Positions 12,454 through 63,533 are shown, counted from the stretch's first letter. The stretch is 64,000 nt of DNA from Escherichia coli (GCF_041886205.1 NZ_CP169029.1), one strand, 5' to 3'. The notes: generated by a model from the letters alone, not told the origin. Numbers and translations are program-made.

Positions 12454-12530
12454 TGGCGCGCCCTGCAGGATTCGAACCTGCGGCCCACGACTTAGAAGGT
12501 CGTTGCTCTATCCAACTGAGCTAAGGGCGC
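12454..12530 (-). tRNA. argU: tRNA-Arg (anticodon UCU)
   Basis: Minus-strand 77-nt sequence GCGCCCTTAGCTCAGTTGGATAGAGCAACGACCTTCTAAGTCGTGGGCCGCAGGTTCGAATCCTGCAGGGCGCGCCA with cloverleaf, UCU anticodon and encoded CCA. Confidence 0.9.
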
Positions 12531-33158: not shown

Positions 33159-33944
33159 ATGGGATATTTAAATAACGTCACCGGTTACCGCGATGATTTA
33201 CTGGCTAACCGTGCGATTGTGAAACACGGTAATTTCGCACTGTTAACCCCGGACGGTCTGGTAAAAAATATTATTCCGGGCTTTGAAAATTGTGACGCGA
33301 CAATCCTCTCCACGCCAAAGCTGGGTGCCTCTTTTGTTGATTATCTGGTCACACTGCATCAAAACGGCGGCAACCAACAGGGCTTCGGTGGCGAAGGCAT
33401 TGAAACGTTCCTGTATGTGATCACTGGAAATATCACTGCCAAAGCCGAAGGCAAAACATTTGCCTTAAGCGAAGGTGGCTATCTTTATTGCCCGCCAGGC
33501 TCCTTAATGACGTTTGTTAACGCCCAGGCCGAAGACAGCCAAATCTTTTTATATAAGCGCCGCTATGTTCCGGTAGAAGGCCATGCACCGTGGCTGGTTT
33601 CTGGCAATGCCAGCGAACTGGAACGCATTCACTATGAAGGTATGGATGATGTGATCCTGCTGGATTTTCTGCCCAAAGAGTTAGGTTTTGATATGAACAT
33701 GCATATCCTCTCTTTTGCACCAGGTGCCAGCCACGGTTATATCGAAACACATGTTCAGGAACACGGTGCCTATATTCTTTCCGGTCAGGGGGTTTATAAC
33801 CTCGACAATAACTGGATCCCGGTGAAAAAAGGCGATTACATCTTTATGGGCGCTTATTCTTTACAGGCTGGTTATGGTGTAGGGCGTGGTGAAGCGTTCA
33901 GCTATATTTACTCGAAAGATTGCAACCGCGACGTAGAGTTTTAA
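33159..33944 (+). CDS. allE: (S)-ureidoglycine aminohydrolase (cupin)
   Basis: 261-aa bicupin ORF immediately downstream of allC. Confidence 0.8.
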   Translation: MGYLNNVTGYRDDLLANRAIVKHGNFALLTPDGLVKNIIPGFENCDATILSTPKLGASFVDYLVTLHQNGGNQQGFGGEGIETFLYVITGNITAKAEGKTFALSEGGYLYCPPGSLMTFVNAQAEDSQIFLYKRRYVPVEGHAPWLVSGNASELERIHYEGMDDVILLDFLPKELGFDMNMHILSFAPGASHGYIETHVQEHGAYILSGQGVYNLDNNWIPVKKGDYIFMGAYSLQAGYGVGRGEAFSYIYSKDCNRDVEF

Positions 33945-33986
33945 GTCATACCACTCGCCTGATTATTTTTAGCTATGTTGGATTTT

Positions 33987-34013
33987 GCCACGGTTTATAC
34001 CGTGGCTTTTTTT
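33987..34013 (+). terminator. Intrinsic terminator after allE
   Basis: GCCACGG-TTTATA-CCGTGGC hairpin followed by a run of seven T. Confidence 0.55.
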
Positions 34014-34097
34014 GTAACATTGCCTGATGCGCTTCGCTTATCAGGCCTACATGATCTCTGCAATATATAGAATTTGCGCGATTTTCAGGAAGGATAT

Positions 34098-34127
34098 AGT
34101 ACTCATGCCGCATCCGGCATGAGTACT
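34098..34127. repeat. 30-bp perfect palindrome between convergent allE and glxK
   Basis: AGTACTCATGCCG-CATC-CGGCATGAGTACT with 13-bp arms; a REP-like element (GCCTGATGCGCTTCGCTTATCAGGCCTAC) lies just upstream at about 34022..34050. Confidence 0.5.
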
Positions 34128-34171
34128 GCGCTCTTATGCGATATACATCGCATCCACTTTAAAGGTAAGAG

Positions 34172-35317
34172 TCAGTTTTTAATTCCCTGACCTATTTTAA
34201 TGGCGCAGGCAATATTTCGCGCGCTGTTGAAGAGATTGGTTTCACCGCTGGCGAGCACTTCGGCTAAAGGTGCCAGACGTGGCAAAATGCTGAATACCGC
34301 ATCAATGCCGTACTGGTGCACCACTTCCACGCCATCACCCAATACGCCAGCAATCCCAATCACCGGTACATTAAACTGTTTCGCCACCGACGCCACACCC
34401 AGCGGCGCTTTACCGCCTGCCGTTTGCGAGTCGATGCGCCCTTCCCCGGTGATCACCAGTGCTGCCCCCTGCACCGCCTGCTCCAGGTTGACCGCCCGCA
34501 GTACAATCTCAATACCCGGTTTAATATCCGCATTGAGAAATACCGCCGCCGCAATACCCATACCGCCCGCAGCGCCGCCGCCCGCCATCTGGCAGACATT
34601 AATTTCAGTTTGCTGTTGTAAAACACGGGCGTAATTTTGCAGCCCCTGTTCCAGTTCTTCGACCATCTCCGGCGTTGCCCCTTTTTGCGGGCCAAACACC
34701 GCCGCCGCGCCGCGTGCCCCTACCAGCGGGTTATCAACGTCACATGCTACTTCAATATGGCAGTTCGCCAGACGCGGATCGCATTCCTCCATCTCAATGC
34801 TTGCCACGCGCGCTAAATTGCCGCCGTTAGCTGCCAGCACCTGACCGTCGGCATCAAGGAAACGCACACCGAGCGCCTGCGCCATGCCCATACCGCCGTC
34901 GACCGTCGCACTGCCGCCAATGCCGAGAATAATATGGCGAATGCCGTTATCCAGCGCATGACGAATTAACTCCCCCGTACCAAAACTGGAGGCCAGCAAC
35001 GGATTACGCTTTTCAGGCGCGACCAGCATCAGACCACTTGCTGCCGCCATCTCAATCACCGCTGTTTTCCCGTCGCCGTTAAGGCCATAAAAAGCATTCA
35101 CTTTTTCGCCCATCGGCCCGCAGACTTCAAGCGTCACGATGTTGCCGCCCGTCGCGGCGACCATCGCATCCACCGTTCCTTCGCCGCCATCCGCTATCGG
35201 CAAACAGATATAGTTCGCATCGGGAAAGAGGGCCGAAAACCCGGCTTTAATTGCCTGACAACATTTTTCTGCACTTAAGCTCTCTTTAAAAGAGTCTGGC
35301 GCAATGACAATCTTCAT
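34172..35317 (-). CDS. glxK: Glycerate 2-kinase
   Basis: ORF 34172..35323; start [16 protein letters not shown]..., 381 aa, glycerate kinase family. Confidence 0.85.
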
Positions 35318-47074: not shown

Positions 47075-47137
47075 TGGGCGGTATTCTGAAACGGCGATTG
47101 TCGTGAGAACAGAATGGTTGCACCAGAATACAGATAT

Positions 47138-47167
47138 AAAAAAACCGACATGACAGTCGGTTTTTTT
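47138..47167. terminator. Bidirectional intrinsic terminator (selU on plus, candidate sRNA on minus)
   Basis: A7-CCGAC-ATGACA-GTCGG-T7: hairpin flanked by an A-run and a T-run, so it works on either strand. Confidence 0.6.
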
Positions 47168-47225
47168 ATTTTTTCCGCCCAAGACTTGGTGGTTCCGGGC
47201 AGAAATGAAACAGTCCTCATCTAGC
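47140..47225 (-). ncRNA. Candidate antisense antitoxin sRNA (about 86 nt) of a type I toxin-antitoxin pair
   Basis: Transcript inferred from the promoter at 47232..47260 to the terminator at 47138..47167. Its 5' end (reverse complement of 47207..47225) is complementary to 47393..47411 upstream of the toxin ORF, about 19 bp including 2 G-U pairs. Confidence 0.5.
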
Positions 47226-53192: not shown

Positions 53193-53254
53193 TATTCCGT
53201 TGATCGGCACATGAACCACAACGCCGGATGCGATGCTGCGCATCCGGCATCGCA

Positions 53255-54034
53255 TCATTTCTTCTTCAATTGCGTCACCACCAACTGGTGGCGCGAATTA
53301 TAAAACTTACGATAGGTTAAATAGCAGGCAATAATGGTCGACAAGCTGGCGGTTGAGAGCAGCATAAAGGTCACCATAATCTGATATTTAATCGCCTTCA
53401 CCGGATCAATCCCGGCAAATATCAGCCCGGACATCATTCCTGGTAAACTCACTAAGCCAACCGTTTTTGCTGAATCGACCGTCGGAATTAAAGCCGCGCG
53501 AATACTGTCGCGAATCAATATCGCTGAAGCCTGCTTCGGCGTCGCACCAAGACTCAGTTTCTCCTGAATCTGTTGCTGTTCGCTAATGACCCGTTGCCCT
53601 AAATTGTTGTAACACAACCCCACCGCTACCATGGCGTTACCGGCAATCATCCCGGCGATAGGGATCACCTGCATCGGGATAAATTCAATCGACCCTGAGA
53701 GAATCAGCACCGCCAGGGTAATTCCCGCCCCGACCGTAATGGCAACAAACGATGAGATAAAAGCTTTAGCAATATATTTACTGCGTTTTTGCGCGTTCCA
53801 CGCCGCATTAAAGCAGATAAATAACACCATCAATAATGTCAGGCTGGCATCATCCACGCTGAAAATATACTTCAGCACATAGCCGACAATAATCAGCTGA
53901 ATTATCGCTCGCCCGACGCTCCAGAGAATATCTTTCTCCAGCGCCAGTTTTTCTTTATGGCTAATTAAGATTGCCACCACCACCAGCATTAATGCCAGTG
54001 CTAATGATTCGTTAGTAATATTATGCGAGTTCAT
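53255..54034 (-). CDS. fetB: Iron export ABC transporter permease FetB
   Basis: ORF 53255..54061; internal start at 54034 gives MNSHNITNESLALA, about 259 aa, polytopic membrane protein; overlaps the fetA stop. Confidence 0.8.
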   Translation of the reverse strand: MNSHNITNESLALALMLVVVAILISHKEKLALEKDILWSVGRAIIQLIIVGYVLKYIFSVDDASLTLLMVLFICFNAAWNAQKRSKYIAKAFISSFVAITVGAGITLAVLILSGSIEFIPMQVIPIAGMIAGNAMVAVGLCYNNLGQRVISEQQQIQEKLSLGATPKQASAILIRDSIRAALIPTVDSAKTVGLVSLPGMMSGLIFAGIDPVKAIKYQIMVTFMLLSTASLSTIIACYLTYRKFYNSRHQLVVTQLKKK

Positions 54035-61742: not shown

Positions 61743-61799
61743 GTACGTCATTGCGGATGCGCTGCTTTAGAGCGGCGCATTTGGCATCGACGCATGACT

Positions 61800-62035
<236 letters not shown>

Positions 62036-62536: not shown

Positions 62537-63331
62537 ATGGATCTGTTGTACCGGGTAAAAACGCTTTGGGCCGCGCTGCGCGGTAATCATTACACCTGGC
62601 CTGCCATCGATATCACCCTCCCCGGCAATCGCCATTTTCATCTGATTGGCAGTATTCATATGGGTAGCCACGATATGGCTCCCCTGCCCACCCGTTTGCT
62701 CAAAAAGCTCAAAAACGCCGATGCGCTGATCGTCGAGGCGGATGTTTCCACCAGTGATACGCCTTTTGCTAATTTGCCTGCCTGCGAGGCGCTGGAAGAG
62801 CGCATTAGCGAGGAGCAACTCCAAAACCTGCAGCACATTAGCCAGGAGATGGGCATTTCTCCCTCGCTCTTTTCTACCCAACCGCTGTGGCAAATCGCGA
62901 TGGTTCTTCAGGCGACGCAGGCACAAAAACTGGGGCTGCGGGCAGAATACGGTATCGATTACCAGCTATTGCAGGCGGCGAAGCAACAACATAAACCCGT
63001 GATTGAACTGGAAGGGGCTGAAAACCAGATTGCCATGTTGCTCCAGCTCCCTGACAAAGGACTGGCGCTGCTGGACGATACGCTGACCCACTGGCATACC
63101 AACGCACGGTTGCTGCAACAAATGATGAGCTGGTGGCTGAATGCACCGCCGCAAAATAATGATATAACGCTGCCCAATACGTTCAGTCAGTCGCTGTACG
63201 ATGTGCTGATGCATCAGCGAAATCTCGCCTGGCGGGATAAATTACGCGCCATGCCGCCGGGGCGATATGTGGTCGCGGTCGGTGCACTACACCTGTATGG
63301 AGAAGGGAATTTGCCGCAAATGTTGCGCTAA
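62537..63331 (+). CDS. ybaP: TraB/GumN-family protein YbaP
   Basis: 264-aa ORF. Confidence 0.75.
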   Translation: MDLLYRVKTLWAALRGNHYTWPAIDITLPGNRHFHLIGSIHMGSHDMAPLPTRLLKKLKNADALIVEADVSTSDTPFANLPACEALEERISEEQLQNLQHISQEMGISPSLFSTQPLWQIAMVLQATQAQKLGLRAEYGIDYQLLQAAKQQHKPVIELEGAENQIAMLLQLPDKGLALLDDTLTHWHTNARLLQQMMSWWLNAPPQNNDITLPNTFSQSLYDVLMHQRNLAWRDKLRAMPPGRYVVAVGALHLYGEGNLPQMLR

Positions 63332-63533
63332 AAAAATGGCCAATATCGCTATTGGCCCGTCAAAGAGGAATTTCATTTTTTTATTATTATGCCGTCACTT
63401 TAAGCGACGGTGTAACTCGATTGTCGCTCAATCTCACCATCCTGCCAATACTCTTAGGCAAGATGACTCTTTTTTTGGACCGCCATCAGGCGTATGCTTG
63501 CTTCGTTTTTTTGTTTAAGGCAGGAAAATTACC

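Follow-up and report, generated by a model that had tools for sequence, protein, structure and literature searches.

The spacer between the convergent Escherichia coli genes allE and glxK contains a 30-bp perfect palindrome, and this raises the question of whether the palindrome is an element in its own right or a part of a known class of repeats, how its arms came to be perfect, and whether it plays any role at the 3' ends of the two genes. An earlier note on the 64,000-nucleotide stretch of E. coli DNA analyzed here (NZ_CP169029.1, referred to below as the window) had deemed the palindrome longer and more perfect than a simple terminator needs, and had proposed that it could be a protein-binding site or a recombination- or cruciform-prone element.

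Organization of the allE-glxK spacer

The two genes converge on a 227-bp spacer (33945-34171), and this placement, already described in the earlier note, agrees with both the open reading frames and the K-12 annotation. The features to which we refer are listed below in window coordinates.

33159-33944, plus strand: allE, encoding (S)-ureidoglycine aminohydrolase (ORF, K-12 annotation)
33987-34013, plus strand: allE intrinsic terminator, GCCACGGT-TTAT-ACCGTGGC-T7, with an 8-bp GC-rich stem (terminator scan)
34022-34050, plus strand: Z-type REP GCCTGATGCGCTTCGCTTATCAGGCCTAC, in iREP orientation and ending in CTAC, the first palindromic unit of a BIME-1
34051-34085, no strand assigned: long (L) linker of the BIME-1, 35 nt (Rfam ES036, IHF scan)
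34086-34119, plus strand: degenerate Y-type REP CAGGAAGGATATAGTACTCATGCCGCATCCGGCA (in-register comparison with canonical Y REPs)
34098-34110, no strand assigned: left arm of the palindrome
34111-34114, no strand assigned: loop of the palindrome
34115-34127, no strand assigned: right arm of the palindrome
34136-34153, minus strand: former glxK terminator stem, ATGCGAT-ATAC-ATCGCAT (comparison with BIME-free alleles)
34172-35317, minus strand: glxK, encoding glycerate kinase (ORF, K-12 annotation), with the stop codon TGA at 34172-34174

The palindrome at 34098-34127 reads AGTACTCATGCCG-CATC-CGGCATGAGTACT, its two 13-nt arms being 100% complementary around a 4-nt loop, as seen both by reading the sequence and with a repeat finder, and it lies 44 nt from the glxK stop codon. 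It is beyond chance. The window holds a single exact copy of the 30-mer, for which 100 shuffles give an expectation of 0.00, and the longest arm in 30 block-shuffles of the window is 11. When the whole window was scanned for perfect inverted repeats with loops of up to 20 nt, arms of at least 13 bp were found at one other site only, 47136-47169. The longest perfect palindrome of the window, ATAAAAAAACCGAC-ATGACA-GTCGGTTTTTTTAT with 14-bp arms, lies within 47136-47224; the hairpin at 47136-47169 is flanked by A7 and T7, has the look of a bidirectional terminator, and overlaps a match to Rfam AgrB (RF02891) on the minus strand. Also correct in the earlier note are the REP adjoining the palindrome, at 34022-34050, and the separate intrinsic terminator at 33987-34013. 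A 46-amino-acid ATG open reading frame (33973-34113, minus strand), whose start is in the hairpin loop, spans the BIME and the allE terminator and is almost certainly no gene.

The allE terminator sits within a block, 33951-34017, that is conserved across genera. Rfam STnc480 (RF02068) matches this block on the minus strand with 87.6 bits, and the family's RNA model, A7 followed by a hairpin and then AAAAUCC, corresponds to a canonical terminator read as its reverse complement. Conservation of the plus-strand block TTAGCTATGTTGGATTTTGCCACGGT-N4-ACCGTGGC-T7 extends from Escherichia to Izhakiella and Atlantibacter, and the block is kept even where REP- or ERIC-like inserts part it from the allE stop codon. 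REP-like units lie between the allE stop codon and the terminator block in the Klebsiella and Raoultella loci (L009, L013, L014), and an ERIC/IRU-like repeat (…CCCCAGGAGCTTACTTAAGTAAGTGACTGGGGTGAG…) occupies the same place in Enterobacteriaceae bacterium RIT691 (L016 3320-3420). To judge from these sequences, the conservation of 33951-34017 looks more like that of an sRNA derived from the 3' UTR in allE sense and, because of this plus-strand pattern, the strand of the STnc480 family may deserve checking. We found nothing useful in the literature on STnc480, nor on glxK or ylbA in connection with REPs or terminators.

The palindrome in the Y position of a BIME-1

In a BIME-1, a Z-type REP and an inversely oriented Y-type REP are joined by a long conserved L linker often carrying an IHF site, and an imperfect palindrome with a GTAG on its 5' side defines a REP (Ton-Hoang et al., PMC3333891). 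When the spacer was searched for in 5426 complete E. coli genomes, window positions 34015-34122 turned out to be about 84% identical to the glnS-chiP locus, a textbook BIME-1 (GCCTGATGCGCTACGCTTATCAGGCCTAC - ATGATCTCTGCAATATATTGAGTTTGCGTGCTTTT - GTAGGCCGGATAAGGCGTTCACGCCGCATCCGGCA). With the glnS-chiP and yaaX-yaaA copies as canonical references, 34022-34119 aligns in register as Z REP, L linker, and Y REP. The Z REP (34022-34050) is near-identical to that of the glnS-chiP copy; the L linker carries only 2 substitutions relative to a 28-nt L probe from that copy, and Rfam ES036, the family that models this linker, is found at 34043-34085 with 38.1 bits, above its gathering score of 37.6. In the same alignment the left arm and loop of the palindrome coincide with the place of the Y REP, and all three BIME-1 copies have AGG and GCCG 20 nt apart.

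Like the BIME-1s, which are also named RIP or RIB, the element thus holds a Z REP, an L linker, and a Y position in canonical order and spacing, and it is a single, non-tandem unit at the 3' ends of transcription units, here between the allE terminator and the glxK stop codon. Its Z REP and L linker are canonical, whereas the Y unit, albeit in the right place and register, is degenerate; it further differs from BIME-1s in its presence/absence polymorphism within E. coli and in its weakened IHF consensus. The consensus WATCAANNNNTTR is matched at 7 of 9 positions by ATTCTATATATTG (34061-34073, minus strand), against 8 of 9 in two canonical copies, the change in the linker being TCAA to TCTA.

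What the palindrome shares with a Y-type REP, besides its register after the L linker and the convergent-gene setting, is the 13-nt 3' half: the core GCCGCATCCGGCA at 34107-34119 matches the invariant 3' half of Y REPs at 13 of 13 positions. Six exact copies of this core are found in the window, where 0.22 would be expected, and the five besides the one in the palindrome all have GTAGGCCGGATAAGGCGTT(C/T)AC upstream. The earlier note had overlooked the REP signature in the core of the palindrome. Unlike a Y REP, the unit has TCAG in place of GTAG at 34085-34088, while the five canonical Y REPs of the window keep GTAG. Its outer left arm has changed from GCCGGAT to GAAGGAT, with 5 of 7 pairs left, and its interior from GGCGTTCAC to AGTACTCAT, with the inner stem mutated at 4 positions. 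The canonical stem pattern, GCCGGAT..ATCCGGC with a 2-base mismatch and GGCG..CGCC inside, is absent from 34086-34119, and this REP stem can no longer form since the Y unit has lost its left arm and interior pairing. The palindrome, instead, is built on a stem whose center lies 9 nt further right: its right arm (34115-34127) is composed of the REP end CGGCA and of the recruited 8-nt flank TGAGTACT, which together pair with the AGTACTCAT interior and the GCCG-CATC-CGGC mini-palindrome. This stem, on which the predicted fold settles, is perfect, without the 2-base bubble of a REP.

The 30-mer is single copy in the genome. We considered whether it might represent an independent repeat family; however, it occupies one place per genome in the 5426 E. 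coli genomes, the extra places being opposite-strand self-matches. The search for other copies that the earlier note had suggested accordingly recovers the 13-nt core alone as a repeated sequence, as the REP signature. Rfam at a permissive E value returns only a chance miRNA match for the palindrome (E = 6.9), STnc480 and ES036 adjoining it instead. No repeat_region features are given in the K-12 RefSeq annotation, and the yaaX-yaaA BIME-1 is no exception.

According to this alignment with canonical copies, the palindrome is very likely the remodeled Y-type palindromic unit of a BIME-1, and not an element distinct from the REP as the earlier note had it, since it occupies the Y-REP slot in register. 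It lacks three features of REP membership, namely, GTAG, the canonical stem, and multi-copy status. The element is best described as a remodeled Y unit in a recognizable, decaying BIME-1, and is of low general interest.

Elsewhere in the window, a REP-like hairpin at 53223-53256, between convergent ORFs, contains two overlapping perfect 10-bp palindromes, GCCGGATGCG-ATGCTG-CGCATCCGGC and GATGCGATGC-N10-GCATCGCATC. Its 3' flank is an inverted copy of its interior, giving a shifted stem of the same kind as in the glxK palindrome. Tandem Y REPs with a period of ~101 bp are found at 61799-62032 and 63330-63413, where Rfam naRNA4 (RF02564) matches twice per strand; the sRNA sroB lies just downstream of this cluster. 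A tRNA is located at 12457-12530.

Distribution across genomes

The palindrome locus is present in 2367 to 2369 of the 5426 complete E. coli genomes (~44%), the palindrome with its flanks having a median of 1 place per genome, and it is absent from the remaining 56%. Most palindrome-free strains, including the type strain ATCC 11775, keep allE and glxK around a spacer of 128 bp, from which REP, linker, and palindrome are all missing. We were not able to detect the palindrome at the loci of Citrobacter, Klebsiella, Raoultella, Buttiauxella, or Serratia that carry the same genes, or in the other genera examined, which have the shared terminator only; in Citrobacter, Klebsiella, Raoultella, Buttiauxella, Izhakiella, and Atlantibacter, the end of glxK comes to within a few bases of this shared allE terminator. 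In Escherichia whittamii (L006 3357-3470), a Z REP and a shortened L linker are followed by unrelated sequence where the palindrome would be. E. coli E69 (L005 3357-3500) carries a G/C-rich hairpin insert, CCCCTCGCCCCTTTGGGGAGAGGGG, which we take to be Box C-like, flanked by a ~27-bp duplication of the glxK terminator stem. From these absences and from the differing inserts in relatives, the spacer is a hot spot of small-repeat turnover in which the palindrome is dispensable.

The spacer haplotype that the window carries (A at 34098, G at 34130, C at 34146, and A at 34157) is rare: 6 of 5426 genomes have 100% identity over the 55-mer of the palindrome, and E. coli LHM10-1, from a pig, matches all 227 bp of the spacer without a difference. 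The idea of a special function, which the earlier note itself would have given up for a palindrome missing from close relatives or belonging to an ordinary REP family, does not survive this distribution: the palindrome is missing from more than half of E. coli, and its core is that of the ordinary REP family.

The same distribution bears on the protein-binding site of the earlier note. The perfect dyad symmetry, with AGTACT at both ends, would suit an operator for a dimeric allantoin or glyoxylate regulator and, among other proteins, TnpA(REP), gyrase, or IHF might be considered, as BIME-1 linkers often bind IHF and TnpA(REP) binds REPs as single-stranded hairpins (PMC3333891). However, the palindrome is located where two convergent genes end, with no promoter nearby, and most strains and all other genera examined have the same operon without it. 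TnpA(REP) needs both GTAG and a stem mismatch (PMC3333891), of which the former has been lost and the latter is missing from the new stem, and the IHF consensus lies in the linker rather than in the palindrome and is weaker than in canonical copies. Nothing in our analysis supports a protein site, which we regard as barely conceivable.

A role at the DNA level is highly improbable, too. Extrusion of a hairpin or cruciform, upon replication or supercoiling, would make the palindrome a fragile, recombination-prone site or a target of insertion sequences. The single-stranded DNA is predicted to fold at -15.1 kcal/mol (z = -5.8), and substitutions cluster in the palindrome. A TEM-1/IS1-associated junction in strain JE86-ST02 (L085 380-430) falls in the loop (...GCATCACC|CGGCATGAGTACT) and leaves only the right arm, while strain EC06 (L089 205-240) carries an IS1 on the glxK side of the palindrome, 8 bp past the right arm. 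Nevertheless, these two rearrangements come from a set of ~2370 genomes, and the locus is stable and single copy in 2367 genomes. Arms of 13 bp with a GC-rich center are, furthermore, at the low end for in vivo cruciform extrusion and much shorter than those that SbcCD attacks, which counts against such a role. What is left of the recombination or cruciform idea of the earlier note is anecdotal evidence of fragility from these two strains, the Tn/IS-associated loop junction and the IS1 at a distance of 8 bp. The JE86-ST02 junction also deletes the left arm of the palindrome and allE.

Alleles of the palindrome and covariation of the arms

Four palindrome alleles occur in E. coli. The commonest, the K-12 type (GGTACT...AGTACT, at K-12 coordinates 543078-543107), has 12 perfect pairs and is found in ~1800 genomes; the window type, with its perfect 13 bp, is found in 270 genomes on at least 3 flank backgrounds; the N2250 type (238 genomes) has a change confined to the right arm, GAGCACT; and the E1V33 type (AGTGCTCATGCAG...CGGCATGAGCACT) is found in 43 genomes. 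The variable sites are 34098 (A/G), 34101 (A/G), which pairs with 34124 (T/C), and 34109 (C/A). At pair 4 (34101/34124) the alleles form a series from the A-T of the window type, through the single-arm intermediate of the N2250 type (A with C), to the G-C of the E1V33 type, in which pair 12 is broken. The N2250 pair is a G.U in glxK sense, where the hairpin is predicted at -22.8 kcal/mol with no energy cost, and an A.C mismatch in allE sense, where it costs 4.7 kcal/mol (-16.6 kcal/mol). At first this seemed to indicate that the palindrome acts on the glxK-sense strand; however, the terminal pair of the K-12 type gives the mirror signal, being an A.C mismatch in glxK sense and a G.U in allE sense, and we set this argument aside as weak, since with one wobble and one mismatch for each orientation the strand signal is nearly symmetric.

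EC931-type and E1V33-type spacers differ by 4 substitutions, 3 of which are inside the 30-bp palindrome and 2 of those at pairing partners, an outcome whose chance we estimate at ~0.5-1%. The covariation of the arms across strains, which the earlier note had recommended checking, hence gives a divided answer: on the one hand, a compensatory pair is found among the four alleles; on the other hand, two changes break pairs, and a formal count of pairs on four alleles, which has no statistical power, is equaled by 256 of 500 shuffles. A scan of metagenomes recovered 33 copies of the locus with the same four alleles and no new covariation, and the fully compensated allele AGTGCT..GCCG..AGCACT, for which we searched, is in no genome. 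The palindrome is more variable than the adjoining L linker and allE terminator and is the most variable part of the spacer, a pattern more in line with a mutational hot spot than with purifying selection.

Origin of the perfect arms

When the Y-REP consensus is compared, at the nine outer positions of the left arm, with the bases needed to pair with the right arm, 4 positions match, 5 differ by transitions, and 0 by transversions. By our own calculation, the probability of such an outcome with arms of independent origin is ~0.2-0.4%, the value for unrelated sequences being (1/2)^9, or ~0.2%. Because 4 matches with 5 transitions are this improbable for unrelated sequences, the arms did not arise independently; as the sequence comparison has it, either one arm was copied from the other, or the arms coevolved through wobble-type steps. 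The 13th pair of the window is deemed a later G-to-A change, given that K-12 retains the consensus G at position 1.

The perfection of the palindrome probably originated by templated mutation, that is, by intrastrand template switching or quasipalindrome correction, and selection for pairing may have helped. Passages of PMC8794818 argue that template switching creates and maintains RNA hairpins, compensatory changes included, without selection. The palindrome resembles products of quasipalindrome correction in that a REP end, GCCG-CATC-CGGC, together with TCA/TGA, appears extended to a perfect 12 to 13 bp, and it resembles template-switch hairpins in that each arm mirrors changes of its partner, the compensatory pair within the species among them. 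It differs from the template-switch cases in having no ancestral sequence that displays a single multi-base event, and stepwise mutation under selection is possible. Since no pre-conversion intermediate was found in the 5426 genomes or in the 33 metagenome copies, we infer the template-switch origin, as we do any RNA function, from features that were determined directly: identity, homology, population distribution, alleles, and folding energies.

The predicted hairpin and the 3' end of glxK

The palindrome is predicted to fold into an RNA hairpin of -21.3 kcal/mol in allE sense and -22.8 kcal/mol in glxK sense, which is the stability of the canonical Y REP (-20.9 and -21.3 kcal/mol); whichever strand of the spacer is folded, this hairpin is the dominant structure (z about -5.8). 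It shares with an intrinsic terminator a GC-rich hairpin shortly after a stop codon. Nevertheless, the terminator scan calls it on neither strand, and no U-run follows the stem, the tails after the hairpin being ATATCCTTCC (AUAUCCUUCC) in glxK sense and GCGCTCTTAT (GCGCUCUUAU) in allE sense. To this extent the earlier note was right in seeing more than a simple terminator: with no T-run after the stem on either strand, the hairpin is not a canonical intrinsic terminator. The genuine terminator of allE lies 85 nt upstream, and that of glxK exists only in BIME-free alleles.

In these BIME-free alleles glxK has a canonical terminator, GAUGCGAU-UUAU-AUCGCAUC, followed by UUUUUUU (U6-7 across alleles). 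Comparison of window positions 34136-34171 with L003 3093-3128, L091, and L093 shows that the former glxK stem (34136-34153), followed on the glxK strand by CTTTTTTT in BIME-free alleles, is followed here by AAGAGCGC; in the BIME allele, then, the stem runs into AAGAG(C/U)GC, and the U-tract is gone. In EC931-, N2250-, and E1V33-type haplotypes, the former stem is further degraded to ATACGAA..ATAGCAT, with three pair-breaking substitutions in EC931-like haplotypes. A U-tract has also been lost in BS-04 (L092), a BIME-free strain in which a 13-bp deletion removes that of glxK.

Transcripts that cover the palindrome should come mostly from the glxK side, given that plus-strand transcription meets the allE terminator first. 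In the glxK-sense transcript its hairpin would form a stable 3'-UTR stem-loop that blocks 3'-to-5' exonucleases, and it may also help pausing or termination. According to passages of Harris et al. (bioRxiv 10.64898/2026.03.23.713779), REPs are dual terminators and stabilizers in 3' UTRs, are enriched between convergent genes, and are present in ~30% of E. coli convergent spacers at positions that vary between strains, while their effect on mRNA half-life is not consistent. Like the REPs that stabilize or terminate transcripts in 3' UTRs (REP325 in yjdMN and the classical mRNA stabilizers), the palindrome is a predicted stable stem-loop after a stop codon with no U-tract; unlike them, it is a derived structure and not a canonical REP. 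A REP-like role would matter more in the BIME allele, as its spacer lacks the U-tract of glxK's own terminator.

Among the mechanisms considered, a REP-like stem-loop in the glxK 3' UTR is the best supported, on account of the lost U-tract, the upstream allE terminator, and the roles described for REPs. Going by the predicted folds and by analogy with REPs, we give a tentative chance, a shade below even, to the hairpin acting in this manner at the 3' end of glxK RNA, as a block to exonucleases or an aid to termination. Against an RNA role are the terminal A.C mismatch that the commonest allele has in glxK sense, the broken pair 12 of the E1V33 type, and the 56% of E. coli genomes that do without the palindrome. 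Neither glxK nor allE, nor K-12 positions 5431xx, appear in the supplements of Adams et al. 2021 and of the TRS study, and the operon is poorly expressed.

Nearly as likely as the REP-like RNA hairpin, and thus a serious possibility even if we rate it clearly under even, is that the palindrome is a neutral relic, left behind as a dying BIME-1 decayed and underwent quasipalindrome correction, with no effect on the expression of glxK or allE. The compensatory change would then be a product of templated mutation between the arms and not of selection, in keeping with passages of PMC8794818 on hairpins that arise and persist by template switching without selection. A relic would be expected to be missing from many genomes, as the palindrome is from 56% of E. 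coli and every other genus examined, and to have lost, as here, GTAG, the REP stem, and some of the IHF consensus; of the four alleles, two have a broken pair in what is the most variable part of the spacer, and the covariation on four alleles is not significant. However, the new hairpin is as stable as the REP it replaced, and the sole internal single-arm variant is a wobble in glxK-sense RNA. Moreover, in the same haplotypes in which the former terminator stem decays by pair-breaking changes, the palindrome stays at least 11 bp long.

A stronger version of the REP-like reading, which we consider unlikely, is that insertion of, or replacement by, the BIME-1 took the glxK U-tract and that the rebuilt REP hairpin is now selected as the element that forms the 3' end of glxK mRNA and stabilizes it. 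Taken as a whole, a remodeled Y REP with templated arms that forms a REP-like stem-loop in the glxK 3' UTR is the best explanation at hand, and we hold it to be about as probable as its negation.

Implications

The palindrome has little bearing on gene function, as it belongs to a known class of E. coli repeats (REP/BIME-1) in a typical place between convergent genes. It is, nonetheless, a clean natural example of a decaying REP reshaped into a new perfect stem-loop, with a compensatory base-pair change that segregates within one species. The presence or absence of the BIME swaps the canonical terminator of glxK for REP-type hairpins in ~44% of strains, and we think that the locus, with natural alleles that carry the element, lack it, or have altered stems, could serve as a test locus for models of REPs as terminators or stabilizers. 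If the hairpin were indeed a selected element of the glxK 3' end, it would be a case of a mobile repeat exapted to repair its own damage, with the steps from A-U through G.U to G-C still segregating in E. coli.
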